DNA of 63,783 nt, the filler included, from Methanobacteriota archaeon (GTDB lineage Archaea > JACRDV01), in the NCBI GenBank assembly GCA_024860865.1. It is 5 parts of 5 records of this genome, joined end to end, with 100 filler letters (N's around TTAATTAATTAA, not from the genome) between each part and the next. Parts side by side here need not be neighbours in the genome. Positions count along the whole stretch, not along the records: positions 1 to 28,029 come from JACRDV010000008.1; 4 more parts are not named here. One strand, 5' to 3'. The translations under genes and the position numbers were made by a program. Positions 17,347 through 44,857 of the stretch are shown here, in pieces (positions within the stretch are counted from its first letter, which is position 1; the number at the start of each line of letters is the position of its first letter). A model generated the notes under the pieces. That model worked only from the letters and a program-made list of their open reading frames with translations. It was not told where the DNA came from and did no database searches.

Positions 17347-17730
17347 ATGAACAAATTTGATCCACGCAGGAGAGAAGACCGACTGAAAGCTCTTGGGCTT
17401 AAATACACGTCTAATTCAGGTGAGTGCCCACTTTACGATACAAGCTTAAATTCTAAATGCAAACTCGACCCTGACACTTACAGGCTTTATGACTGCAGAG
17501 GCATTTGGATTATAGATGGGATTTGTTGTAGATTTTTAGTCGGTGCGCGAGAAAGGCTGGTAGAAAAAGCCAATCAGACTTTGTTGCTGTCTCTATTCGG
17601 AGTTTCAGTGCTATTAGGCTACAATTCGATTGCTGTGATGGTGGGTATATTCATGATGTTATATGGATATAATCACTATCGAGTAAGGCAAAAAACAGGT
17701 TCGAAATTTTCTTTTGCCTCTAAGATTTAG
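17347..17730 (+). CDS. Hypothetical protein, Cys-rich N-terminus plus TM C-terminus
   Basis: ORF track; CPLY..CKLD..C..CC. Confidence 0.45.
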   Translation: MNKFDPRRREDRLKALGLKYTSNSGECPLYDTSLNSKCKLDPDTYRLYDCRGIWIIDGICCRFLVGARERLVEKANQTLLLSLFGVSVLLGYNSIAVMVGIFMMLYGYNHYRVRQKTGSKFSFASKI

Positions 17731-18077: not shown

Positions 18078-18581
18078 GTGAAAAAGCTGGGATTAATTAT
18101 ACTTAAAGTTCCAATCAGTCAGACGCGAACAGCTGAAGATGAAGCTGTAAAGATACTTAAGGAAAAACAAGTGAGTTTTAACATCGTACCTACTAGATTT
18201 CGAGGGCTTGTTTTATTGGAAGTTGAAAAGCCGCGAGAGATAGCAAATCTTCTTAGAGAATTTGAAACTTATTATATTTACAAGATTTTTCCAGCTGAGA
18301 AAATTGTAGAAACGAATTACGACATTGTGAAGCGAGAGGCAATCGAATTATCTAAACTGTTGATTAAACCAGAAGAGACTTTTGCTTGTAGAGTTGAGCG
18401 AAGGGGAGCTTTTGGTTCTAGAACAACACCAGAGATTGAGCGAGATATAGGCGGAGAGATAAACGATATAATTGGATGTAAATGTAACTTAAAGGATCCG
18501 GATAAACTCGTGCAAATCGAGGTTTTAGATGGAGATAGTGCTATTTGCATCCTTAATAGAGCAGAAAGAGCGAGAAAATGA
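18078..18581 (+). CDS. THUMP domain RNA-binding protein
   Basis: ETFACRVERRG...EIERDIGG...NLKDPDKLVQIEVL. Confidence 0.85.
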   Translation: MKKLGLIILKVPISQTRTAEDEAVKILKEKQVSFNIVPTRFRGLVLLEVEKPREIANLLREFETYYIYKIFPAEKIVETNYDIVKREAIELSKLLIKPEETFACRVERRGAFGSRTTPEIERDIGGEINDIIGCKCNLKDPDKLVQIEVLDGDSAICILNRAERARK

Positions 18582-18858
18582 ACGTTTTTAAAGGGACTCT
18601 TTAAAAAATATTAAGAATTACTGAATTTCTCTTATTCTCAAAAATCTTCCTAGATAATCCTCGCTATAAAGGTTTCAACTATAAATTTAGTCTTTTATAT
18701 TATGATTTTTAGAATTTTTTTAAAAATATGGTATGAAATTTTGTATAAATTTAAAATACTAACAATATAAAATTGATATTGTCTAATAGTGCGTAGGAGG
18801 TATATCCATCAAAACACGAAGTCCAAAGGGAATAAAAAACCAAAAAGGTACTGCTCCT

Positions 18859-19440
18859 TTGAAAATGATCGCTAAGGATTCAATCACACCGAAAAAGGGA
18901 TTTCAATTTAACGATGAGGGATCGGTGCATTTTTTGGGAATTAAAGGTTTGCTCTTGACTTATAATTTTTTGAATAAGATTTACACCGACTCAAACAGCG
19001 AGATATCATTCGAAAAAGGTGTAAAAACTGGACGCCAATATGCTGAGAATTTATTTAAAAGTTTAGGAGTTAAAGCTAGAGAAATTTTGAATGCCTATCT
19101 AAAAATGACTATATTCAAAGAAAGAGGGGCAATATCGATTGCTACATTTGATAAGAAAAAGAAAGTTGTAATTGTTAAGTACAGGAACCCACGCCCAGAA
19201 AACAGAGAATTCAATGCATTTGTTAGGGGTATCACTCAAGGGGTTTTTGAGCATGCTTTTGAAGGTGAAATAGAATTACAAGAATCCAAATGTACTTTAA
19301 GGGGCGACGAATTTTGCGAATTTATTATTTCTAAACTTGATGATTTTAGCCCAGAGGGTCCGAAATTCAATACCTTTAACTTGTCAATACCTGAAGTGCA
19401 TGCATCTCATAGCAAAGTAGAGCAAGTCATTGAAAACTAG
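18859..19440 (+). CDS. V4R domain protein
   Basis: FVRGITQGVFE...ESKCTLRGDEFCEF. Confidence 0.8.
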   Translation: MKMIAKDSITPKKGFQFNDEGSVHFLGIKGLLLTYNFLNKIYTDSNSEISFEKGVKTGRQYAENLFKSLGVKAREILNAYLKMTIFKERGAISIATFDKKKKVVIVKYRNPRPENREFNAFVRGITQGVFEHAFEGEIELQESKCTLRGDEFCEFIISKLDDFSPEGPKFNTFNLSIPEVHASHSKVEQVIEN

Positions 19441-19681
19441 GGGCATGGATGTGAATCATAATAATCTAAGTGAATGGTTGATAATGGTAGGTGCTTTGAT
19501 GTCCCCGGTAGTTCCTAGTTGGGAGATACCAGTCGTTTCATTCTTTATTCGCATAAAATGGTTCAGTATTGTTCCATTGATCCTTTGCACTATTTGGAGT
19601 ATAGGGATTGCTTTACTTTTTGTTGGTGCTTTTCTTGCTGGCAAAACTATCAAAAGAAGTCTCTATACATTTAAAGTCTAA
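19430..19681 (+). CDS. Small hypothetical membrane protein
   Basis: Hydrophobic 83-aa ORF following V4R gene. Confidence 0.45.
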   Translation: MKTRGMDVNHNNLSEWLIMVGALMSPVVPSWEIPVVSFFIRIKWFSIVPLILCTIWSIGIALLFVGAFLAGKTIKRSLYTFKV

Positions 19682-19847
19682 TAACTTATTTAGTGAAAGC
19701 TATTTTTTCCCTCTTCTTAGATTTTTCCTCTTCTTCAAACTCCATTATGTCAACATAATCTAAAGTTCCCAGCTTTTTTAACTGTTTTTCTGCCTTGGCT
19801 TTTTATCTAAAGAATATTTTCACCTAAAATTTCATATGCATTTGTTT

Positions 19848-20102
19848 CTAATGGTGAATCTTGCGGTATGGGATTTTTAGTATTGAATCACATTTGGGAC
19901 ATTTGTATGGCATTTGAGCATCTTTTATAAAATAAAAAGAAAAGCCACATTCTTGGCAAGTAGTATCTTTTAACTCTTTTTTAGGTTCTTCTTGGCCCAG
20001 CCAAAGCAATACTCCGCGGCAAATTGAACAAAAACGCGGTTCTGGTGTTTCACTTTTAGTACAAATTAAATAAGAACAACTCTCGCACTTGTAGCAGTAC
20101 AA
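19848..20102 (-). CDS. Double Zn-ribbon protein
   Basis: Four CxxC pairs. Confidence 0.7.
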   Translation of the reverse strand: MYCYKCESCSYLICTKSETPEPRFCSICRGVLLWLGQEEPKKELKDTTCQECGFSFYFIKDAQMPYKCPKCDSILKIPYRKIHH

Positions 20103-20134
20103 TGCAATTCCTCATTTATGCAGTTTTTAGTAGG

Positions 20135-20656
20135 TTATTTGCTCAAAGCTTTAATAATTTGCTCACAAAAATTTGGCAGATCGCCTGGATGCCGTGAAGT
20201 GATAATATTTTCATCTTTAATGACTGATTTATCAGCATATATAGCTCCAGCATTTATCACATCATCTTTAATAGCTTTGTAACAAGTTACGTGCTTGCCC
20301 TCTAAGATTCCGGCTGAAATCAGCACTTGTGGACCATGACAAATTGCGGCGATTATTTTATCATTTTTGTAAATCTTTCTTACTAATTCCAATGCTTTTC
20401 CGTTTGTTCTGAGTTTATCTGGGGCGTATCCGCCCGGAATAATCAAACAATCTGGCAGTGGTTTTGTCAAGGCTTCTTCTAAATTCATATGGGGCTCAAT
20501 AAGTTGCCCATGTTTTCCTCTGAGTGTCTCTTTTTTCGGTGCCACGATTTTAACATCAGCGCATTCTTCCTTAAGCCTAATTTGTGGATAAGTGAGTTCA
20601 GTATCTTCGAATTCGTGCGTAGTGAGAATAAAAATCCTTTTTTCTGCTAAACTCAA
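20135..20656 (-). CDS. pfpI: PfpI/DJ-1 family protease/deglycase
   Basis: FEDTEL, IIPGGYAPDKLR, AICHGP, ITSRHPGDL. Confidence 0.92.
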   Translation of the reverse strand: MSLAEKRIFILTTHEFEDTELTYPQIRLKEECADVKIVAPKKETLRGKHGQLIEPHMNLEEALTKPLPDCLIIPGGYAPDKLRTNGKALELVRKIYKNDKIIAAICHGPQVLISAGILEGKHVTCYKAIKDDVINAGAIYADKSVIKDENIITSRHPGDLPNFCEQIIKALSK

Positions 20657-20859
20657 GTAATCCGCTCATTATTGGAAAATATAATAATTAATTGAGATAA
20701 AAGAATACCGACTATAAACTTTACTCTTAATAACTTATTGGCTAGCTTAATTCAAAAAAATAGCATGCATGAAAATTGCTATATTTAGAAAAACTAACTA
20801 ACATTGAGAACTGAGCTTAGATAGCAATAAACTTTCTCAAATACGATAATTAGATAAAA

Positions 20860-21261
20860 TCAGTTTATTCGGTTTGACTCAAATTCTTTCAAGAAATTCC
20901 TTAAAGACTCAAAATCTCCAGAGAATTTATAGATTATTTTTTTGTTGCTATTTAAATTGACCTGTTCAACAATTCGCAAACTCGCGAACTTTTTTAAACA
21001 AGATGAGGCTGTGGTTGGGCTAATTTCAGCTGAGCGAGCAACTTCTCTTATGCTTTTCAATTCGCACTTGCTCAAAGCAATTAGACATTTTATTCGAGGG
21101 TCATCACGAAAAATGTTAAAAACTGTATTAACCATAAACATTAAGAGGTTATTATCGTCTACGGCTATAGGCTTTAGTTCGCAAGCATTTGCAGACATAA
21201 AATTCCTAATTGAAGAGGTGATATTAGAATTTTTAAGATTATTGTAATCGGTTGTATACAA
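20860..21261 (-). CDS. Winged-helix DNA-binding protein
   Basis: SIREVARSAEISPTTASSCLKKF. Confidence 0.6.
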   Translation of the reverse strand: MYTTDYNNLKNSNITSSIRNFMSANACELKPIAVDDNNLLMFMVNTVFNIFRDDPRIKCLIALSKCELKSIREVARSAEISPTTASSCLKKFASLRIVEQVNLNSNKKIIYKFSGDFESLRNFLKEFESNRIN

Positions 21262-21312
21262 GTTCTTTTAATTATTAAAACATTAAAAAATCATATAATT
21301 TTTCATTTATAG

Positions 21313-22026
21313 TTATTTCTTATCGTTTCTTACAATTTTAGATAAGATTTCTGAATATTTTAAACTAGCTTCTGATTGCACTAGCCAAGTCATCCAACAG
21401 AGTTCAATTGGCCTATAGCCAGTTTTCTGAGCAATTTTATGAACGGTCTCTATAAAAGCGATATCATCTAAAATCGGCGTTATTACTTCAGATTCTTTTA
21501 AGATATTTGTAATAATCCTTCTGACTATTTTATCAGGCATGACTGTATCTATCCCACCCATCATTCTTAAATACTGAAAAGTGTTTAAGCCTACACCTTT
21601 GATTTTACCGATTGGATTTTCTTTCCAATTTTGTAACTGCGCATTCTTTGCCCAAGTGATGAAAGCTTGTTTATCAGTTTTCAAATTTTTTTGCTCTTTA
21701 ATGTTTACTAAAGAAGAAGCAATAGATTTGGCAACTTCCCAAGATCTTTTGTTCTTCCAAATTTTTCTAAGAACTTTCATCTCTGCAGAAGTAAGATCTT
21801 CTAAACTTTTTATTTTTCCTGATTTAACGAAAGTCTCCTCAAATTCGATCATTTTTGGGACAACTGTTTTAAAATAATTTAACCCAATTGATGTAAAAGC
21901 AGCATCTATAACCATTAAAAGGATACTACTCCCCCATCTCCTAGTCTTTAGGCATTGATTGCAATAATACCTAACCTCAGGAACTTTTTGCATGTAATGA
22001 TTGACAATAGTTTTTAGTTTATTCAA
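21313..22026 (-). CDS. HhH-GPD-like (DNA glycosylase-fold) hypothetical protein
   Basis: IKGVGLNTFQYLRMMGGIDTVMPDKIVRR helix-hairpin-helix plus Asp; divergent from ku. Confidence 0.6.
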   Translation of the reverse strand: MNKLKTIVNHYMQKVPEVRYYCNQCLKTRRWGSSILLMVIDAAFTSIGLNYFKTVVPKMIEFEETFVKSGKIKSLEDLTSAEMKVLRKIWKNKRSWEVAKSIASSLVNIKEQKNLKTDKQAFITWAKNAQLQNWKENPIGKIKGVGLNTFQYLRMMGGIDTVMPDKIVRRIITNILKESEVITPILDDIAFIETVHKIAQKTGYRPIELCWMTWLVQSEASLKYSEILSKIVRNDKK

Positions 22027-22118
22027 ATTGACCCTTCAAATCTCAGAAAACCTCTTTATGCAAAAAAATATAATTTAGTGTTTTCTAATTCTTTTAAAGA
22101 TTAAATTTTTGTGATATT

Positions 22119-22931
22119 ATGGCCCGTGCTATCTGGACTGGAAGTATTTCATTCGGTCTCGTTAACATTCCTATACGGCTCTATCCAGCGACCGAAGATC
22201 ACGAGATTTCCTTTCGAACACTTCACGATAAGTGCAATACTCCGCTCGAATATAAGCGATATTGCCCAGTGTGTAAAACAGAAGTTTCTTGGGAGAACGT
22301 TGATAAAGGATTTCAAGTTACTAAGGGCAAATTTGTAGTTCTTAAGAAAGCAGATTTTGAGCGCATTAAGTTAAAAACCACAAAGACTATTGATATACTC
22401 CAATTCGTCAATGCAGCAAGAATTGACCCGATTTTCTATAACAAACACTATTTTATTGCTCCTGAAAAAGGTGCTGAGCAAGCATATTCTTTGTTTAAAG
22501 AAGCACTTGAGCTTTCTGGGATGATGGCGCTTGGAAAAGTAGTGATGCGAAATCGTGAGCATCTGGTAGCGCTAAGATGGTATGGCAAAGGTCTTTTGAT
22601 GTCAATATTGTATTATAAGGATGAAGTGAAATCACCTGAGGATTTTGAGGAAATCAAGCAATTAGTGGCAGTGCGAAGTGATGCTCAACTCAAGTTAGCG
22701 AGATTGTTAATAGATCAATTAGCGAAAGAAGATTTTGAGATCAGTGATTTCAAAGACGAGTATCGCAGGGCTCTTCAGCAGTTAGTGAGCGCTAAGCTTA
22801 AAGGCGAAGAATTTTTAGTTGAAAAACCTCCAACTGTCGAGGCAGCAAGAGATTTGATGTCAGCGCTAAAAGCAAGCGTAGAGCAGTTTAAGAAAAAGAA
22901 GAAAAAGAAAATAGAAGTGGAGGCTAGGTGA
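22119..22931 (+). CDS. ku: Ku protein (prokaryotic NHEJ)
   Basis: MARAIWTGSISFGLVNIPIRLYPAT, FKDEYR, DLMSALKASV, basic tail. Confidence 0.95.
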   Translation: MARAIWTGSISFGLVNIPIRLYPATEDHEISFRTLHDKCNTPLEYKRYCPVCKTEVSWENVDKGFQVTKGKFVVLKKADFERIKLKTTKTIDILQFVNAARIDPIFYNKHYFIAPEKGAEQAYSLFKEALELSGMMALGKVVMRNREHLVALRWYGKGLLMSILYYKDEVKSPEDFEEIKQLVAVRSDAQLKLARLLIDQLAKEDFEISDFKDEYRRALQQLVSAKLKGEEFLVEKPPTVEAARDLMSALKASVEQFKKKKKKKIEVEAR

Positions 22932-22941
22932 GCTTCTTTTG

Positions 22942-23024
22942 ATGAATGAAAAAATTGAGCCAATGCTATCTATCCTAGCAAACCATTTGATTCCCCTAAC
23001 CATATTTTTGAAATCAAATTTGAT
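22942..23024 (+). pseudogene. 5' fragment of a second, intron-less ligD paralog (1-nt frameshift, truncated after KFD)
   Basis: MNEKIEPMLSILA/(K)PFDSPNHIFEIKFD parallels the N-terminus of the downstream ligase. Confidence 0.75.
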
Positions 23025-23070
23025 CCACAACTAATATTAAAAATGGAAAATGATGAGGTGAAAGTTAAAA

Positions 23071-24065
23071 ATGACCTTATTTGAAGAAAAAATAGCGCCA
23101 ATGTTAGCACATATTTCAGAACCATTTGATTCAAACGAGTGGTTATTTGAGATCAAAATTTCTTGGTAGTTTTTTGCCAGGAAATGGTCATATTTGATGG
23201 TACTAGGACAATTGCTTTTCTTGGAAAAACAACTCGTCTTCAAAATCGTCGCTTTATAGATTTAACGTACCGTTACCCTGAACTCCAGCAATTAAATCGA
23301 AATATTAAGGCAAAAGAGGCGATTCTCGATGGAGAGATTATTGTATTCCAAAATGGATTGTCAAATTTTTACAAATTACAAGAAAGAGAACATCAAACGA
23401 AAAAGTTTAAGATAAATCTACTTTCTGAGCAAATGCCCGCAGTTTATGTAGCTTTTGATTTACTTTACTTAAATGGAAAGAAGTTAGTTACTCAACCTCT
23501 TATTAAACGAAGAGAATTATTAAGTAAAACAGTCAAAGAGGATGAGCGCATTCTTGTTTCACAATATATTTTTGAGTATGGCAAATCTTACTTCAAAGAG
23601 GCAAAAAAACGTGGATTAGAAGGGATAATGGCTAAGCAAATAGGTAGCCCATATCTAATTGGAATGCGTAGCCGATATTGGTTGAAGATAAAGAATTTGA
23701 AAACACTTGATTGCGTTATAGCCGGCTACACAAAGGGAGAAGGTTGGCGGACAAAATACTTCGGAGCTTTAGTTTTGGGTTGCTATTATAGAGGAAAGTT
23801 GACTTATATCGGAAGAGTTGGAACAGGATTAAATGTCTCTGAATTCGAGTTAATTACTCCTCAGTTTGAAAAACTTAAAACAAAAGATTGCCCTTTTTCT
23901 GAAAAGCCAAGGTTTCCCTCGGATATAGAGGTAACGTGGATCAAACCAGAGCTTGTTTGTGAAGTAAAATTCATGAATTTATCCCGAGACCTAAAATTGC
24001 GGGCTCCTAGTTTTATTCGCTTACGGAATGATAAGTGGCCAAAGGATTGTGAGTTAGAAATTTGA
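23071..24065 (+). CDS. ligD: ATP-dependent DNA ligase (LigD ligase domain), join(23071..23156,23192..24065), 319 aa after predicted splicing
   Basis: RBS GAGGTGA 23055-61; exon 1 MTLFEEKIAPMLAHISEPFDSNEWLFEIK plus exon 2 FDGTR..LDGEII..AFDLLYLNG..EGIMAK..WLKIK..GRVGTG..LRAPSFIRLRNDK. Confidence 0.88.
23157..23191 (+). other. 35-nt bulge-helix-bulge (BHB) intron in the ligD mRNA
   Basis: GATC/GGTC 4-bp helix, 3-nt bulges AAA and ATA, 12-bp inner stem with TTTT loop; cuts after the 2nd bulge nt rebuild the Lys codon AA|A in frame. Confidence 0.85.
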
Positions 24066-24213
24066 ATTAATTTTCAGAAAGACAATGCATATATTTTTTA
24101 TCTTACCTTGTAAAAATCTTAATAATTTCTAATTTAAAGAAACTTCTGAATTAGAAAGACAAAGAGCAGAATGGTAACAAATATCTTTTGTTTTTAACTA
24201 ACTTGTAAACTAT

Positions 24214-24453
24214 ATGCGCACTAAAAAAATAAACCCAAATTTACAAACCAAATTAACGATTCAAAATTATTCAGCTCTAAATGAAATTGAAACAGAAACA
24301 AAAATAACTGAATTTGAATCTACTGAAATACCAAATGAAATAGAAAACCTGGCTTTTTTGCCAATTCTAAAGAAAGAGTGCAAACGATGTGGAAGTTCCT
24401 TTGCCACACATTTTGAGTCTGTAGAATTTTGCGCGAATTGTATAAAGTTATGA
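24214..24453 (+). CDS. Small protein with C-terminal Zn finger
   Basis: CKRCGSSF...FCANC. Confidence 0.55.
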   Translation: MRTKKINPNLQTKLTIQNYSALNEIETETKITEFESTEIPNEIENLAFLPILKKECKRCGSSFATHFESVEFCANCIKL

Positions 24454-24609
24454 TTTTTAGTATTTTCAAATATATTGGAACCAAAATACCCTAAATTCAG
24501 TGATTTTTCACTGAATCACTTGAATTGAAGTCATAAAATAAGAAAGAATATTTCTTTTTAATGCACTAATTTTACTTGAGCAAGCAAAACTACCAATCAA
24601 GGGACTAAG

Positions 24610-24822
24610 GTGCCAATTAAACAAATACCTTGGTTTAAAGGGCTAACGATAGCAATAGAAGTTGTACTTACTATTTTGATTTCGGGTCTATTATGTGGGA
24701 TCGCAGGCTACTTTCTATGGAGTTCTAATCCGATCTTTGGATTCGTTTTTGGAATGAGCATCGGTTTTTTCTTAGGGCTGATTTTTGCATTTTGGGCTAT
24801 AATTAAAATTTATGGTAAATAG
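24610..24822 (+). CDS. Small two-TM protein (AtpZ/AtpI-like)
   Basis: Two Gly-rich TM helices. Confidence 0.5.
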   Translation: MPIKQIPWFKGLTIAIEVVLTILISGLLCGIAGYFLWSSNPIFGFVFGMSIGFFLGLIFAFWAIIKIYGK

Positions 24823-24838
24823 TTCAAAAAGCATGTCG

Positions 24839-25534
24839 CTATTTTGAATATGTATAAATCTGTCCCTTTTTTAGTTCTACGACCTTTACATAAGGCATTT
24901 GCTCATCAACATGCCTTTTGAATTTAGGGCCTTCAACTTCAATTAAATCTGTGTGATGCGGTATAACTACTTTTGGCGAAATTAACTCAACTGCATGAAG
25001 AGCCGAAGTGATAGAAACGCCAGGGGCTATCCCAACGGGAATGATTGCTATATCAGGCTTGTATTTCTCACCGATCTTTTTCATACCATCGAATGTTTGG
25101 GAATCAATTGCGTGGTAAATTACAATACCATCGTCAGTTTCAAATACAAATGTTAACGGCATTTGAGATGGATGTCTTGCTCTTTCTGCTGTAATTTTGA
25201 TCTTTCCAATGTTGAAAGAATCACCCATATTTATTGTCTTGATTTTATCTTGAGGTATATCTTCTAATTGTCTTGCCACTACTGGAGAGGTCAAAATGGT
25301 TGCATTGGTATTTTTTTGTATAGATGATACTAAATCTGGATCAAGATGATCATAATGTTCGTGGGAAATCAGAATAAGATCTGCTTTTTTGACTTCAAAA
25401 CCTTTGATTTGATATGGATCTATTATTACTGTGGTCGATGGTATTTTAAGAGCAGTTCCAGAGTAACTATTAAACCACATTAACGCTGCGCTTTTAGGCT
25501 TTACTTCTAATTTTTCTAATTCTGTGAATGCCAT
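24839..25534 (-). CDS. Metallo-beta-lactamase-fold hydrolase
   Basis: IIDPY, LISHEHYDHLD, YHAID, IPHH. Confidence 0.88.
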   Translation of the reverse strand: MAFTELEKLEVKPKSAALMWFNSYSGTALKIPSTTVIIDPYQIKGFEVKKADLILISHEHYDHLDPDLVSSIQKNTNATILTSPVVARQLEDIPQDKIKTINMGDSFNIGKIKITAERARHPSQMPLTFVFETDDGIVIYHAIDSQTFDGMKKIGEKYKPDIAIIPVGIAPGVSITSALHAVELISPKVVIPHHTDLIEVEGPKFKRHVDEQMPYVKVVELKKGQIYTYSK

Positions 25535-25741
25535 TTAACTTCCAATAAATTAACACTTATAAGGGATATTTAACATTTCTTAGGAAACTTTTTCAGAACA
25601 TTTTTTAAAAATAAAAAAATTAAAAGGTCAATTTTTTAAGCGGATATCGATTACGAGCAAGTAAAATTTTGTTCAATTAGAAACATAAAGCTTATGGGCT
25701 ATTTTTTTGGGATAGTTTCGAGCAATAGAGTTTTAAAATTG

Positions 25742-25841
25742 GCACGGCAACGAAAATAGTTTGCCATGCTTTCGTAGAGATTATTAACGAGCCATCTACG
25801 AAAGGCTCGGGGTGAAAATTTGAGGCCAACACCCAAATTTT
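25742..25841 (-). ncRNA. Candidate small structured RNA/leader with two H-type pseudoknots and a hairpin
   Basis: Interleaved complementary blocks; TATA-like TTTATATA on minus strand at ~25857-25864. Confidence 0.45.
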
Positions 25842-26034
25842 TTATTTTAAATAATAATATATAAATGTTATTAATATAATATATTTAATAAAATAATTTT
25901 TAATTTAAAAAACTTTTGAGCTCAAATTTAGAATTTAATAGAAATACTGGCTTCTCAGCAAATAATTTTTCTGCTATTCAAAGACTTTGCTAAAAATATA
26001 GATATCTTTAACCAAAGTAGGTTGAGGTGTTAAA

Positions 26035-26364
26035 ATGGATTTAGTTTTAGTATACATAACTGCCCCTAATGCTGAAGAAGCGCAGCGAATTGGCGATATT
26101 TTGGTTCAAGAGCGATTAGCAGCTTGCATAAATATAATTCCTGAGATTCAATCAACATATTGGTGGGAAAACAAAATTGAGCGCGCAAAAGAAGCAGTAA
26201 TAATCGCTAAAACAAAACAAGGAGCAGTTGATCGCTTAATTAAGCGAGTTAAAGAAGTCCATAGTTATCAAGTTCCTTGCATAATTGCGTTTCAAATTTT
26301 GGCAGGAAATCCAGATTTTTTAAATTGGGTAAGAGCTGAGGTAAGTAATAAAGTATTATTTTAA
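26035..26364 (+). CDS. cutA: Divalent-cation tolerance protein CutA
   Basis: LVQERLAACINI, STYWWE, HSYQVPCII. Confidence 0.93.
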   Translation: MDLVLVYITAPNAEEAQRIGDILVQERLAACINIIPEIQSTYWWENKIERAKEAVIIAKTKQGAVDRLIKRVKEVHSYQVPCIIAFQILAGNPDFLNWVRAEVSNKVLF

Positions 26365-26387
26365 TAATGTTTTGTATCTAAAATGAT

Positions 26388-27110
26388 TTGGTGGCGGAAA
26401 TTACAGTTAGGCCAGAAAAAGAAGCTTTTAGAGAAATTATTTATGATACCTATTGCTGGAAAATTTTAAAAGACCTTCGTAGCCAAGCTGCTGAAATTAT
26501 GGAAGTCCTATCAAAAAATAACATCAGCTCAATGGTTCACGGAAGTTTAGCTCGCGGGGATGTCGATAAAGAGTCAGACATAGATGTTTTCATTTCCCAA
26601 ACTATTCCATCATTCCAAATTGAGATTGCCCTTGAAGATGCGGGTTATAAACCAATTTTAAGGGAAATAGTTCAAGCAACACCTTGGCAGTTGATAAAAG
26701 CTCATTTTTACATTTCTGAAAAGAAAGTCGTCAGTTGGCCTTTAATTTCGCCAAAGAAAGCTGAACTTGAGTTTTATTACTTTGGCGGAGCGGCAACTCT
26801 CCCTCAACTTAGGAACAACGTAAGAGTGCCAGGTGTTGATAAGCGACTGATTGTTATATTGCCCATTGAAAAAGGTCATCAAGAAGTTCCGGTTTTAGCG
26901 TACGGCGAAGGAAAAGTTGCAAAGCTTTTAAACATTAGCCTTGATGCTGTAAAAGAGCGTGTTCAAGTATTAACGAGAAGGGCAGAAATTGGTCATACTG
27001 GAATTTATATCAAGAGAGCGCTAGGACCTGACGAAACTTACGAGGATGTTTTTAGAAAACTCATTGTTGAGCATCCTGTTATCAAAAAGCGCATTCGTGA
27101 AACGGAATGA
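26388..27110 (+). CDS. Archaeal nucleotidyltransferase-domain protein
   Basis: HGSLARGDVDKESDIDVFI, EFYYFGG, RVPGVDKRL. Confidence 0.85.
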   Translation: MVAEITVRPEKEAFREIIYDTYCWKILKDLRSQAAEIMEVLSKNNISSMVHGSLARGDVDKESDIDVFISQTIPSFQIEIALEDAGYKPILREIVQATPWQLIKAHFYISEKKVVSWPLISPKKAELEFYYFGGAATLPQLRNNVRVPGVDKRLIVILPIEKGHQEVPVLAYGEGKVAKLLNISLDAVKERVQVLTRRAEIGHTGIYIKRALGPDETYEDVFRKLIVEHPVIKKRIRETE

Positions 27111-27754
27111 AAGCAAAAACGATAATTCAAAAATTGATGAAAATTTATCCTTCTGAACTATGGGATTTTAAAAAGCTGGAAGATCCATTTGAATGTTTAG
27201 TTTGGACCATTCTTTCGCAACAGACTACTTCAAAAAATGCTGAAGTTGCATTCGAACAACTTTGGAAAAAATTTAATAACATTCAAAAACTTGCTTCAGC
27301 AAATCGAACTGAAGTTTCAAAATTAATTTACACGGCAGGTTTATCAGCTCAAAAATCAAATTATCTTATTAAGTCTTCAAGAGAAATCTTAAAAAAATAT
27401 GATGGGGGCCTAAAAGCAGTTCTTAAAAAGCCTGAGACTGAAGCTCGAAAAGAATTAATGGTCCTTCCAGGAGTTGGATTAAAAACAGCTGATGTTATTT
27501 TATGTTTTGCAGGCGGAAGAGACACTATTCCTGTTGATACCCATGTTTTTATAGTCTCAAGGAGGCTTGGATTAGCAAGTGGCAAAACAGTGTCAAAGGT
27601 TAAAGCAGAACTAGAAGCAGTGATTCCACCAAAACTTAGAAGATTCGGACATTTATTGCTAATTCAACTTGGAAGAGATTATTGTAAGGCTCGAAACCCA
27701 AAATGTTCAATATGCCCAGTTAATAAATTTTGTACATATTATCAAGGAATATGA
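27107..27754 (+). CDS. nth: Endonuclease III
   Basis: LPGVGLKTAD, PVDTHV, CKARNPKCSICPVNKFC. Confidence 0.92.
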   Translation: MKAKTIIQKLMKIYPSELWDFKKLEDPFECLVWTILSQQTTSKNAEVAFEQLWKKFNNIQKLASANRTEVSKLIYTAGLSAQKSNYLIKSSREILKKYDGGLKAVLKKPETEARKELMVLPGVGLKTADVILCFAGGRDTIPVDTHVFIVSRRLGLASGKTVSKVKAELEAVIPPKLRRFGHLLLIQLGRDYCKARNPKCSICPVNKFCTYYQGI

Positions 27755-28684: not shown

Positions 28685-31600
28685 ATGAAAGAAGTTAACA
28701 CTAATATTAAAACAACAGAAGAAATTCAAATCCCAAAGAAATTAATTGAGCAAGTTATAGGCCAAGACCAAGCAGTTGAGGTCATTAAGAAAGCTGCTGT
28801 ACAAAAGCGCCATGTGTTGCTAGTTGGGGAGCCCGGAACAGGAAAATCTATGCTTGGACTTGCGATGGCAGAATTGCTTCCAAAAGAAGAACTTCAAGAT
28901 ATTTTAGTGTATCCCGGCATTGAAGATAAGAATAACCCAGAAATCAAAGTTGTGCCAGCTGGTGAAGGCAAGCAGATAGTCTCAAAAGCTCGCTTCAGGT
29001 CAAAAGAAGGTGAGAGGAAAAAACATCTTTTTGGAACTTTGATTATTTTTGGCATTCTATTCCTCGGATTAGTGACTTGGGTTCAATCAAAATCTCCAAC
29101 TGGTTTTTTAGTAGCTATGTTAGTTGCTGTAATGGTTTTCATAGCACTTGGAACTATTCGAGTTAGAGAAGAAGTTGAATCCCCAAAACTTTTGGTTAGC
29201 AATCAACCTGATACTATCGCTCCATTCGTTGATGGAACGGGCGCTCATGCTGGGGCGCTTCTTGGAGATGTGAGGCACGATCCCTTCCAGTGTATTCCAG
29301 ATTATGAACAGGTTCAATTGCCAAACGGAAGGCCGATTAAAATTAGTAAACTATTGGATAGGTTTTTCGAGGATAAGCACCCCGAAGAAATAGAGTTACA
29401 TCCTAATCAGCAGTTCCAAGTACTGGCAGGCTTTGATGATAAGTTCGGATTTATAAAAGCAAATGTTGTAAAAGTATTCAGAAGATTTTATGATGGGGCA
29501 TTAATTGAACTCGAAACTAGGCGTGGTTATAAGATAAGGGTGACGCCTAACCATCCAATAGCGATTTTTAATGCTAACGGGACTGTGAAATATATTGAAG
29601 CAACACGAATTAAAAAAGGAATATTAAGTATTGTACCTTACAAGCTACCAATCGAAACTAAAGAAATATTGAATAAAGAAAAACTACTGCTCTATGCGGA
29701 CATACTGGCAGATGGTTACGTTGGTGAAAGAAGTGTAATCTTCAAGCTCAGACGGGAGTTTAAAATAAAATGGATTCTGACTCATATCCAAGCTTGCGGA
29801 CTTAAGCCGAATGTACTAGTCCGAAATAAAGATACACTTATCTATATTAATTCAGCAGAGTTTGTTAGAGAATTAAGCCGCATCGGACTGTTAGAAGATG
29901 GTAAGAAAAAAATACCCTCAATTATTTTTGACCAGCCTGCAAAGAATATCAAAACGTTCATAGCAGAATACTTTGCAATAGATGGATACGTTGGTAAGCA
30001 AGGTCAGTTTGAACTCATATCAAAAGAATTAATCAGCGATTTTGTATCACTCCTGCTCAAAATAGGCATAAAGGCTAAGGTAAGAGAAAGGATAGATAGA
30101 GGATTTGGAAAAGGAAAAATCCAGCCGGAACTTATTTTCTCCAATTATGAGTTTGCTAAATTTTACTACCCTACAACAATAAATCCATATCATAGACAGA
30201 ACTTGAGAAAGTATCTCAGAGAAACAAGAAGTACACATGTGACATATGATGATAACATACCACTCGGTTTTGATGTTTTAGAAAGATTGAGAGATGCAAT
30301 TGGACTAAGTAGGGCGCGAATACATAAAAGCTACTATGCTATGAATCCTAAGGTGGATACATATACCACCCCAACAAGAGGTTTGCTCCGGCATGTAGTT
30401 TCAGTTTTTCAACAACATTTGAATTGTTCTGAGTTTTATAAATTGAGAGACATCGTATATGGAAGTTATGGGTTTGATGAAATTGTTAACCTGCGTTTAG
30501 TTCGCTATAAGGGCTATGTGTATAACGTGACAACAACGACCGGGAACTACTTAGTAAATAATATTCTAACCCACAATTCCGGCGGACTCGAAACGCCAGC
30601 ACACGAGAGAGTTGAGGCAGGAGCGATCCATAGAGCGCACAAAGGAGTATTATTTATTGATGAGATAGCGACCCTTGGACCTAGGAGCCAACAAGAGTTA
30701 CTCACTGCAATGCAAGAGAAAGCATATCCGATCACTGGCCAAAGCGAGAGAAGTTCCGGTGCGATGACAAGAACAAAGCCAGTTCCATGCGACTTCATTT
30801 TGATAGCGGCAGGCAATCTACCAGTTGTAGAAAAAATGCATCCAGCTTTGAGATCTAGGATGCGCGGTTATGGTTATGAGGTTTATATGAATGACACTAT
30901 ACCTGATACTCCGGAAAACCAAGAGAAACTTGCTAGATTTGTTGCTCAAGAGGTAATTAAAGATGGCAAAATTCCCCACTTCGCTAAAGAAGCTGTAGAG
31001 GAGATAATTAGAGAGGCCAGGCGCAGGTCAGGTAGAAAAGGCCATCTAACCCTTAGGCTTAGAGACCTTGGTGGGCTGATTAGAGCAGCTGGAGATATTG
31101 CAAGGTCAAAGAGTGCCAAATATGTTGAACTTGAACATGTACTTGCTGCTAAAGATACTGCTAGGACTCTTGAGAAACAGCTTGCTGATAGATTCATTGA
31201 ACGCAAGAAGGAGTATCAAGTTTTTAAGACGGTTGGGGCTGAAGTTGGGAGAGTTAATGGATTAGCTGTAATTGGTCCAGATTCTGGTGTTATTCTTCCA
31301 ATAGTTGCAGAAGTGGCACCTGCTCTCAGCAGGGAAGAGGGAAGAGTAATTGCTACTGGCAAGCTCGGTGAAATTGCAAAAGAAGCTGTTCAAAATGTGA
31401 GCGCCTTGATTAAAAAATACACGGGTCAAAATATCAAAGACTATGATATTCATGTTCAATTTATCATGTCTCATGAGGGAGTTGAAGGTGACTCCGCTTC
31501 TATCTCAGTTGCTACAGCAGTCTTTTCAGCTTTAGAAGGAGTTCCAGTTGACCAAAGTGTTGCTATGACAGGTTCATTGAGCGTTCGCGGCGAGGTTCTG

Positions 31601-31873
31601 CCAGTGGGTGGAACTACTCCAAAAATAGAAGCTGCAGTTGAGGCGGGGATCAAAAAGGTTTTAGTGCCGAAGGCCAATGAAAAAGAAGTATTTCTTGAAG
31701 AAAAGAAAATAGGGAAAGTAGAGGTCATCCCAGTTGAAAGCATTACGGACGTTCTAGAGCATGCATTGGTTTGGAGGGATAAAAAAGACTTACTGGCTAA
31801 ACTCCGTGAATTGGCAGCTAAAACTATTCCTCGCATAGGCATTTTTGAAAGGGAAAAGCCAACACCGACATAG
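28685..31873 (+). CDS. lonB: Archaeal membrane-bound Lon protease with intein
   Basis: GEPGTGKS, TM insert, HDPFQ|intein|SGGL, FIDEI, GDSAS Ser and downstream Lys. Confidence 0.96.
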   Translation: MKEVNTNIKTTEEIQIPKKLIEQVIGQDQAVEVIKKAAVQKRHVLLVGEPGTGKSMLGLAMAELLPKEELQDILVYPGIEDKNNPEIKVVPAGEGKQIVSKARFRSKEGERKKHLFGTLIIFGILFLGLVTWVQSKSPTGFLVAMLVAVMVFIALGTIRVREEVESPKLLVSNQPDTIAPFVDGTGAHAGALLGDVRHDPFQCIPDYEQVQLPNGRPIKISKLLDRFFEDKHPEEIELHPNQQFQVLAGFDDKFGFIKANVVKVFRRFYDGALIELETRRGYKIRVTPNHPIAIFNANGTVKYIEATRIKKGILSIVPYKLPIETKEILNKEKLLLYADILADGYVGERSVIFKLRREFKIKWILTHIQACGLKPNVLVRNKDTLIYINSAEFVRELSRIGLLEDGKKKIPSIIFDQPAKNIKTFIAEYFAIDGYVGKQGQFELISKELISDFVSLLLKIGIKAKVRERIDRGFGKGKIQPELIFSNYEFAKFYYPTTINPYHRQNLRKYLRETRSTHVTYDDNIPLGFDVLERLRDAIGLSRARIHKSYYAMNPKVDTYTTPTRGLLRHVVSVFQQHLNCSEFYKLRDIVYGSYGFDEIVNLRLVRYKGYVYNVTTTTGNYLVNNILTHNSGGLETPAHERVEAGAIHRAHKGVLFIDEIATLGPRSQQELLTAMQEKAYPITGQSERSSGAMTRTKPVPCDFILIAAGNLPVVEKMHPALRSRMRGYGYEVYMNDTIPDTPENQEKLARFVAQEVIKDGKIPHFAKEAVEEIIREARRRSGRKGHLTLRLRDLGGLIRAAGDIARSKSAKYVELEHVLAAKDTARTLEKQLADRFIERKKEYQVFKTVGAEVGRVNGLAVIGPDSGVILPIVAEVAPALSREEGRVIATGKLGEIAKEAVQNVSALIKKYTGQNIKDYDIHVQFIMSHEGVEGDSASISVATAVFSALEGVPVDQSVAMTGSLSVRGEVLPVGGTTPKIEAAVEAGIKKVLVPKANEKEVFLEEKKIGKVEVIPVESITDVLEHALVWRDKKDLLAKLRELAAKTIPRIGIFEREKPTPT
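29291..30577 (+). mobile_element. Intein (429 aa) with LAGLIDADG homing endonuclease
   Basis: Starts CIPD, block B VTPNHPI, LAGLIDADG-like YADILADG and AEYFAIDG, ends VYNVTT..NNILTHN before Ser. Confidence 0.95.
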
Positions 31874-43792: not shown

Positions 43793-44857
43793 TTAAATAA
43801 GTTTATTTTCAAGATTTATTCCTTTAACTGAAATTTCACCAAACTCCCCTTTCTCACCTTTTATTTCAAACTTTACAGGCAATATTTTCTCTATGACACC
43901 AATATTTGTTAAGCAGTGCTCGGTTATTTTTTCCACAGTTACTTTTGATTCTGAATCACAAAGGGAAAGAAAAACCAAAATCTGATCAGCCATGTATTTG
44001 TCTAAAGCAGCTCCAGATTTTATGCTGTTGATTAGCTCTAAGGCAGCTTCTTCTGCAACTTTCTCTGCAGGCTTTCCTTTCTTACCAATGTTATCAGAAC
44101 CAAGTACTGTATTCTCACATTCTGCCCATAGTGTTATCGACGTACCCGGGGACATTGTGTTGACAGTTTGATATGGGATATCTACCTCTAGAAAGTTACG
44201 ATCAATAAAAAATTTTTTAGCAGCATTAGCTTGTCTAACTGCCACATGCTCGGGCAATGATCCAGCAATAGAAATTCCTTTGATTGATTTAACTTCTCCA
44301 GGTTCGGTTAATTGAATCGAGTTTAATTTTTTAACAGGATAAACAGTAATTTCTACTAATGCCCCACCCTTGGGATAAAATCCCTCTTTAATTATTTTAA
44401 TTTCAGCATTATATCCTATTTTTTTAACAATCGGTAAAAACACATTCTGAGTATATTGTACCGGGGGGCTCCATGTGGAAGCAGTAGATCCGCCTTTAAT
44501 TTTTATTTTAACAATATCATTAGCATATGCGCTAGCAACTTGCAGGCTTTGATATAAAAGACCAATACTTCCAGCTGTTGGTAATTCGATGTTCAATTCT
44601 CTTGCTTTAAGTTTTTCTGGAATGAATTCTATTTCTGTTGAGCCTAATTTTGCACCTTTCACTTCTGCATCACATAATTGAGCTACTGCTAATACTCCCT
44701 CTAGATGCTGACTTTTCAAGCCAGCTCCGCCGGCCCTTGCACCGCGAATATTTATAAATTTAATAGGCTTACCAGTAATTGCAGATAGGCCAAGGCTGGA
44801 ACGAAGTAATTGGCCACCAGCAGTTTTCCCATCTATAATAACCATAAGAATCACCAA
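43793..44857 (-). CDS. rtcA: RNA 3'-terminal phosphate cyclase
   Basis: GGQLLRS, QHL, AGSIGL, GFYPKGG, MADQ, TEHCLTN. Confidence 0.92.
   Translation of the reverse strand: MVILMVIIDGKTAGGQLLRSSLGLSAITGKPIKFINIRGARAGGAGLKSQHLEGVLAVAQLCDAEVKGAKLGSTEIEFIPEKLKARELNIELPTAGSIGLLYQSLQVASAYANDIVKIKIKGGSTASTWSPPVQYTQNVFLPIVKKIGYNAEIKIIKEGFYPKGGALVEITVYPVKKLNSIQLTEPGEVKSIKGISIAGSLPEHVAVRQANAAKKFFIDRNFLEVDIPYQTVNTMSPGTSITLWAECENTVLGSDNIGKKGKPAEKVAEEAALELINSIKSGAALDKYMADQILVFLSLCDSESKVTVEKITEHCLTNIGVIEKILPVKFEIKGEKGEFGEISVKGINLENKLI

Follow-up and report, generated by a model that had tools for sequence, protein, structure and literature searches.

A 63,783-nt stretch of DNA (assembly GCA_024860865.1, recorded as Methanobacteriota archaeon; hereafter the window) carries, directly after a ku gene, an ATP-dependent DNA ligase gene of the LigD type associated with non-homologous end joining (NHEJ). 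The reading frame of this gene (23071-24065, plus strand) is interrupted by a 35-nt insert at the codon of the catalytic lysine. We conclude that the insert is very likely a genuine archaeal bulge-helix-bulge (BHB) intron in the pre-mRNA of the Ku-associated ligase. Support comes from its fold, from homologous inserts at the same codon of other ligase genes, from covariation of their stems and from selection on the interrupted exons.

In archaea, the splicing endonuclease EndA cleaves each 3-nt bulge behind its second base, a rule that fits the tRNA 37/38 intron. In the ligase transcript, the insert and its flanking exon bases would fold into a helix, a 3-nt bulge, a 4-bp helix, another 3-nt bulge and a further helix. 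EndA, the tRNA-splicing endonuclease, would then cut behind the second base of each bulge and RtcB would join the exons, AA plus A rebuilding the codon of the adenylated lysine in motif I (KxDG). Unspliced mRNA would yield only a 32-aa peptide, or a ligase lacking this lysine and started at an AUG within the intron. Judged by its sequence, the enzyme is probably made only after mRNA splicing, and active ligase would depend on the tRNA-splicing machinery. That the transcript is cut and rejoined in living cells, and that this has any regulatory role, is what we infer from this arrangement.

The interrupted ligase gene and the predicted fold of the insert

Read from the ATG at 23071, exon 1 runs into a TAG at 23167-23169, which leaves an open reading frame (ORF) of 32 aa (23071-23169). 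The long ORF of the gene caller, 23163-24065, begins within the insert, and the representative of its protein cluster (P0001) starts with MVIFDG. From Phe-Asp-Gly on, the remainder of the ligase lies in a different frame, which extends from 23193 to the stop at 24065. Excision of 23157-23191 or, equivalently, of 23158-23192 joins 86 and 874 nt into 319 codons plus stop, and the motif I lysine is present only after this excision. Exon 2 matches the Pfam families DNA_ligase_A_M (PF01068; profile positions 29-204 of 204, E 1.5e-32) and DNA_ligase_A_C (PF04679; E 1.8e-25). The nucleotidyltransferase and OB domains, the neighbouring ku gene and homologues that their sources name NHEJ ligase or LigD all agree with an assignment to the LigD-type ligases.

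The central helix of four base pairs is formed by 23151-23154 with 23186-23189 and is bordered by two bulges of 3 nt each (23155-23157 and 23190-23192), giving a 3-4-3 geometry. The inner stem of 12 bp (23158-23169 with 23174-23185) closes a loop of 4 nt, and five of six positions pair in the outer helix (23145-23150 with 23193-23198). RNAfold assigned the motif -20.6 kcal/mol (z = -3.3), a value equalled by one of 200 shuffles. The initial annotation of this locus had seen an apparently broken ligD whose exon 1 hits a TAG, and an annotated ORF without the adenylated lysine; it had drawn the 35-nt insert as a BHB with the same central helix, bulges and 12-bp inner stem and with a weak outer helix, and had applied the EndA rule to regain motif I and a 319-aa ORF. 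All of this was reproduced here.

A strict scan of the whole window for BHB motifs returned 13 sites on the plus strand and 9 on the minus strand, compared with 3-13 per plus strand in 20 shuffles. Among these 22 sites the ligase site has the longest inner stem (12 bp; next 10 bp) and is the only one located at a visibly broken gene, where excision leaves 31 and 291 open codons. A loose scan was uninformative (651 plus-strand matches vs 507-559 in 5 shuffles). Scored with the covariance model R1, the next best site of the window reached 11.7 bits, compared with 57.3 bits for the ligase site. The idea of a repeat or a miniature inverted-repeat transposable element was rejected, as R1 finds no second copy in the window, G001 or G002; one weak match at G001:C10:662-689 (19 bits), situated where a gene ends, lacks a BHB fold.

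Elsewhere in the window, a 33-nt in-frame hairpin at 17639-17678 has a BHB-like 3-4-3 geometry with a 10-bp inner stem and lies near the end of an ORF without Pfam family (17347-17730). Its unconstrained fold favours a single long imperfect hairpin (-22.4 kcal/mol), and the resemblance may be due to chance.

Homologous inserts, covariation and selection

A search with the exon 2 protein listed 120 relatives, and 20 of them, mostly short ones, were chosen and fetched. Eleven of the 20 begin two or three residues before Phe-Asp-Gly, and the same interruption was therefore suspected elsewhere. DNA was surveyed at 131 loci, 80 from species-representative genomes and 51 from metagenomes. Nine loci are interrupted within the Lys codon (L003, L009, L081, L087, L088, L093, L120, L121 and L130), and L089 has the 3' end of such an insert at the start of its contig. 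Two more (L091 and L125) are interrupted 7 nt downstream and two lack the 5' end. The main comparison comprised ten inserts at the Lys codon, hereafter site A (nine distinct, L120 repeating L009), plus a 31-nt copy in L142/L145.

Further copies were sought with the motif covariance model and by protein search among 151 sampled genomes from the phylum that includes L003, recorded as Aenigmarchaeota. This gave one new copy, G145, and located L093 and L121 in genomes G018 and G131. The ligase was found in 21 of the 151 genomes (E at most 1e-72), interrupted at the Lys codon in 5 and not in 16. R1 misses the 17-nt copies, L121 and G131 being found by junction inspection only. Besides the insert of the window, ten distinct homologous inserts at the same codon are present in other ligase genes from metagenomes or metagenome-assembled genomes (MAGs). 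The phylum sample also contains a ligase-like match, L168 (G077:C1:66311-67085), with many TAG and TAA stops (2+2 and 4+2 in two overlapping matches), which may be a broken copy or something else.

Every copy at site A has a 4-bp central helix of standard pairs only, flanked by two bulges of 3 nt. The first of these invariably reads AAA and includes the two exon bases of the Lys codon. The first two bases of the 3' bulge vary (AT, AA, TT, AC, TG, GT), and its third base, which is position 3 of the Lys codon, is a purine in all copies; if the cut is placed after base 2, this purine matches what a Lys codon (AAA or AAG) requires. The inserts of 35, 34, 32, 32, 32, 31, 32, 35, 17 and 31 nt are never divisible by 3, and a single cutting rule restores both the frame and E-x-K-[FL]-D-G in 11 of 11 distinct site-A copies.

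The intron-bearing ligases of different lineages are mutually only 49-66% identical, and the inner stems diverge widely (3-12 bp), that of L093 being G+C-rich with unrelated letters and that of L121 measuring just 3 bp. For the 17-nt copy L121, the minimum-energy fold of RNAfold is exactly the full motif, and a Phe-to-Leu codon provides a perfect outer helix; the fold of L087 has z = -3.8. L081 and L130 contain identical 32-nt introns, and their motifs differ only at the last position of the 3' bulge, an exon 2 base, where the change from AAA to AAG is silent.

At the second site (site B), the inserts of L091 (394-426; 21 nt) and L125 (272-303; 19 nt) lie between the Gly and Thr codons of the KxDGTR motif. 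The same rule restores the frame and D-G-T-R in both. The central helix is paired at three of four positions, and an outer helix is not predicted. The type of EndA is linked to the strictness of its substrate requirement, and by their sequences the second-site inserts are probable BHB introns of a relaxed form. L091 is sister to L088, which has a first-site intron, with support 98 in the quick tree introduced below.

The covariation test used nine aligned sequences, 500 shuffles and five measures. Overall, 90.6% of cells were paired compared with 79.5% in shuffles, and 10 pairs had changed on both sides compared with 3.3 expected. None of the 500 shuffles reached any of the five measures, and controls with slid partners were paired to 24-53%. 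Pairing reaches 100% in the central helix and 97.8% in the inner stem, where nine of ten pairs have changed on both sides. The second pair of the central helix alternates between A-U and G-C, an Ile/Val change in the exon (A to G) being offset in the intron (U to C). An alignment of homologous ligD genes at this site had been proposed in the initial annotation, and the homologous inserts found at the same codon do covary in their stems.

Between intron-bearing pairs, the ratio of nonsynonymous to synonymous substitution (dN/dS) of exon 2 is 0.088 for L081/L130 (synonymous divergence dS 0.36) and 0.068 for L009/L120. Ratios of 0.07-0.09 show purifying selection; neutral evolution of the second exon had been named at the outset as an outcome that would speak against an intron. 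Homologous inserts, geometry, covariation, restored frames and exon selection thus jointly favour the earlier proposal of a BHB intron that must be spliced to regain the catalytic lysine.

The four exon bases that pair with the intron read G[AG]TC in all nine long-intron genes examined. This sequence occurs in 19 of 118 uninterrupted genes, all of them from Thermoplasmata/Methanomassiliicoccales, Methanomicrobia-type archaea or bacteria according to the recorded taxa, and in no uninterrupted gene of the clade that holds the introns. As for the enzymes, EndA was found in five of five related intron-bearing genomes and RtcB in four of five.

Acquisition of the probable intron and its distribution

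Upstream of the present exon 1, the window retains a remnant of an older exon 1 (22942-23024), which runs through the Lys-Phe-Asp codons and whose frame is broken by a deletion of 1 nt. A contig of 4171 nt from another run (X2) matches window 22100-23024 with 14 differences (98.5% identity over ku and remnant), and an extra C behind 22971 mends the frame of the remnant. In X2, exon 1 is undamaged and leads straight into the remainder of the gene, and the match to the window resumes at 23578 onward, with 69 differences. Between the two matches there are 379 nt in X2 and 553 nt in the window; the difference is exactly 174 nt and equals 23025-23198, i.e., the leader, exon 1, the intron and a repeated TTTGAT. 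When the X2 differences are applied to the letters of the window, the N-terminus of the uninterrupted relative P0002 is obtained.

The 3' part of the leader (23044-23070) with exon 1 and the intron is 80% identical (116/145 nt) to L081, and when genes are ranked by exon-1 DNA, the four closest to that of the window all bear an intron. Exon 2 of the window has 57.8% DNA identity to L081 and 80% protein identity to P0002. From the 174-nt difference, the L081-like exon 1 and intron and the P0002-like exon 2, we infer that recombination delivered the intron together with exon 1 and perhaps with more of the gene. The sequence comparison thus indicates that the leader, exon 1, the intron and possibly exon 2 came by recombination into a resident uninterrupted gene. 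The 5' junction of this event lies right after the Phe-Asp codons of motif I, the old exon 1 being left behind as a decaying remnant. Pooled over all pairs, a test for discordance between exon 1 and exon 2 is weak (mean residual 0.014 for 35 intron-bearing pairs vs 0.009 for 882 pairs), its signal being limited to a subgroup of the window, L081, L130, L009, L088 and L087.

The window and X2 represent intron-plus and intron-minus alleles of one locus with the breakpoint at the insertion site; similarly, the uninterrupted L082 stands beside L081 and L130. Short contigs of X2 on window 23078-23168 carry a further intron allele, with a window-like exon 1, a different stem-loop and a fully Watson-Crick central helix. 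As X2 contains both this allele and the contig with the empty site, intron-plus and intron-minus ligase genes coexist in one sample.

Distribution was read from a quick tree of 71 rows, on which gains and losses were assigned by eye, the group test on this tree comparing site A with site B only. All interrupted genes fall within one clade of 56 rows, the named members of which are mostly Aenigmatarchaeota, and they are dispersed among uninterrupted genes, with L081 and L130 beside L082 and L121 beside L024. By eye, this quick tree suggests about seven separate intron-bearing lineages.

The intron may have arrived by a homing-like mechanism or by chance gene replacement. Introns of only 17-35 nt cannot encode an ORF of their own. 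No homing endonuclease was met among the flanking ORFs scanned (18078-27754, small ORFs in part), the only endonuclease there being endonuclease III (27107-27754), and the sole LAGLIDADG domain seen in the window is that of the LonB intein (28685-31873). It is conceivable, although we consider it rather doubtful, that the mini-intron, exon 1 and leader form a cassette which spreads horizontally, entering uninterrupted ligase genes at motif I through DNA recombination. One such route would be a break between the Phe-Asp and Gly codons, one side being repaired from an intron-bearing donor and the other by end joining. If true, the cassette would be the first worked example of ORF-less BHB introns spreading between protein genes, and the exon bases that build the BHB helices would move along with the intron. 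As a bolder corollary, an intron in the catalytic Lys codon would restrict the end-joining ligase to cells with archaeal tRNA-splicing enzymes.

The features of the locus are collected in Table 1. Directly after the ligase, a small ORF at 24214-24453 contains two Cys-x-x-Cys pairs and matches no Pfam family. An archaeal LonB protease gene (28685-31873) contains an intein with a LAGLIDADG domain (Pfam Intein_splicing and LAGLIDADG_3), and by this gene the window DNA is archaeal. On the minus strand, 20 kb from the intron-bearing gene, lies a gene for the RNA 3'-terminal phosphate cyclase RtcA (43793-44857; Pfam RTC, E 1.2e-68), a member of the end-chemistry pathway of RNA repair and splicing. 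No tRNA and no Rfam match was found in the window. The HMG-CoA synthase of the window, tried as a phylum marker, failed to place the organism: it is ~70% identical to named proteins of Hadarchaeales, Hodarchaeaceae and Methanotorris, and at most 64% identical to proteins of the 151-genome sample of the phylum of L003.

Table 1 Features of the ku-ligase locus in the window.
Feature	Position	Strand	Remarks
ku gene	22119..22931	+	Pfam Ku beta-barrel, E 6e-49; immediately precedes the ligase module
Decayed resident exon 1 remnant	22942..23024	+	1-nt deletion; translation matches the N-terminus of uninterrupted relative P0002
Leader of the putatively acquired cassette	23025..23070	+	Shine-Dalgarno-like GAGGTGA at 23055-23061; X2 homology ends at 23024
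Exon 1	23071..23156	+	28 codons + AA (first two bases of the catalytic Lys codon)
Predicted 35-nt BHB intron	23157..23191 (equivalently 23158-23192)	+	Covariance model R1 57.3 bits, E 5.5e-14
Whole BHB motif	23145..23198	+	Helices, bulges and inner stem by inspection, folding and covariation
Exon 2	23192..24065	+	Third base of the Lys codon, Phe-Asp-Gly and remainder (290 aa + stop); 80% identical to P0002

Alternative explanations and known systems

Several observations weigh against a BHB intron. The outer helix consists of 4-5 pairs, mostly G-U and A-U, with one mismatch invariant in nine of nine sequences; 72% of its cells are paired, it is perfect only in L121, and it does not covary, because its strands are coding. 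In the minimum-energy fold of the window motif, RNAfold shuts the 3' bulge with an extra A-U pair, so that the second bulge is not dictated by energy alone. The motif is uninterrupted in 117 of the 131 loci, so that the family can do without the intron. At its 3' end, the intron of most copies contains an in-frame AUG or GUG, which makes a truncated product conceivable. RtcB was not found in G002, a MAG of ~0.6 Mb with unstated completeness, and none of the sequencing runs listed with the window DNA is of RNA.

That a small palindromic element has simply inactivated the gene, with no ligase expressed, would fit the stop reached by exon 1, the shortened protein of the automatic gene calls and the visible decay of the adjacent old exon 1. 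A pseudogene is nonetheless very improbable: ten further distinct inserts interrupt the same codon in ligases 49-66% identical, with intact exons and in a frame-restoring manner, dN/dS is 0.07-0.09, and the element is single-copy per genome with covarying stems. An error of assembly or sequencing is more remote still. The only run that fully covers the locus, X1, gives a 2154-nt contig with 0 differences and may be the source sample itself; yet inserts occur in independent assemblies (two MAGs, eight metagenome contigs, seven of them whole and L089 cut, and three further genomes), and the short contigs of X2 carry another allele of the same intron.

Two further explanations do without RNA splicing. 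Translational bypassing, as in phage T4 gene 60, requires matched take-off and landing codons. For bypassing or a frameshift speak a hairpin that contains a stop codon and comes soon behind the take-off point and the same AAA codon before and after the gap in 3 of 10 copies. However, the landing codon is ATA, TTA, ACA, TGA or GTA in 6 of 11 copies and AAG in 2, and over gaps of 17-35 nt it is the 3-4-3 BHB geometry that is conserved and no landing site, so we give this explanation very little credence. A truly split gene, in which an N-terminal peptide and an AUG-started ligase cooperate or the truncated form has a non-catalytic role, also appears improbable. It would account for the in-frame AUG or GUG located two to three codons before Phe-Asp-Gly in most copies, and in P0065, P0070 and P0074 the read-through codon before Phe is indeed Lys. 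Such an AUG, however, arises from the structure itself (the closing A-U of the inner stem and the G pairing with an exon C) and is in frame by geometry alone, and it is absent from L093. Of the two products of the window gene, neither would have the lysine within its motif, and a split gene leaves the conserved bulges and the compensatory changes unexplained. A BHB intron thus remains the preferred explanation of the insert.

A full-text search of the literature, supplementary files excluded, found no BHB intron in DNA ligase genes or in protein genes of DPANN archaea; as BHB introns of archaeal mRNAs it yielded only that of cbf5, within a coding frame, and one in a 5' untranslated region. Watanabe and colleagues reportedly described a BHB intron in crenarchaeal cbf5 pre-mRNA in 2002. 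The initial annotation named cbf5 as the well-established archaeal mRNA intron. Schwarz 2020 (PMC7714728), in the portion available, describes a BHB intron in the 5' untranslated region of Haloferax volcanii HVO_1309, the removal of which the authors suggest to matter for expression, and gives cbf5 as the sole further case known in mRNA at that time. Gain and loss of the crenarchaeal cbf5 intron are treated, in the accessible part of the article, by Yokobori 2009 (PMC2738675). The ligase intron, as predicted here, is well conserved and adds a new case to the very few archaeal protein-coding genes with BHB introns.

It provides a second well-supported coding example in another gene and other phyla, at two sites of one catalytic motif and with close relatives that differ; together, these features suggest that mRNA splicing by the tRNA machinery is commoner in archaea than annotated. 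Pipelines call such ligases truncated from the intron-internal AUG, so that the catalytic lysine is missing from databases, as in 11 of the 20 fetched proteins. The ligase case also carries unusual evidence on intron acquisition, its empty-site allele and leftover exon 1 being rare direct material on the gain of such introns.

In common with cbf5, as far as the sources at hand describe it, the ligase has a tRNA-type BHB intron within the coding frame, lineage-specific presence and absence and mis-annotation by gene callers. In contrast, cbf5 encodes a pseudouridine synthase of Desulfurococcales and Sulfolobales, whereas the ligase acts in DNA repair and belongs to a phylum recorded as Aenigmarchaeota and to an unplaced archaeon. 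Unlike that of cbf5, the ligase intron lies inside the codon of a catalytic residue, has two insertion sites 7 nt apart and is much patchier, and direct evidence indicates that it arrived jointly with exon 1 by recombination. For cbf5, splicing has been shown experimentally, while for the ligase it is predicted from the sequence. HVO_1309, in the available part of its description, likewise has EndA acting on mRNA; its intron is located in the untranslated leader and, unlike that of the ligase, interrupts no codon.

With the BHB introns of archaeal tRNA and rRNA, the ligase intron shares the motif, the predicted cutting rule and the size range of mini-introns, the difference being a messenger as host RNA, in which coding limits how far the exon strands of the helices can vary. 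Methanocella paludicola has an archaeal stand-alone Ku-associated NHEJ ligase. Ligases of this type resemble that of the window in their LigD-type ligase domain beside ku, but their genes are uninterrupted. Finally, HAC1/XBP1 splicing by IRE1 with RtcB or tRNA ligase, in so far as the consulted portion of PMC13149111 covers it, is similar in being independent of the spliceosome, in its paired stem-loop cuts, in the change of frame and in joining of the tRNA-ligase type, and differs in its endonuclease IRE1, its regulation by stress and the lack of a BHB motif.

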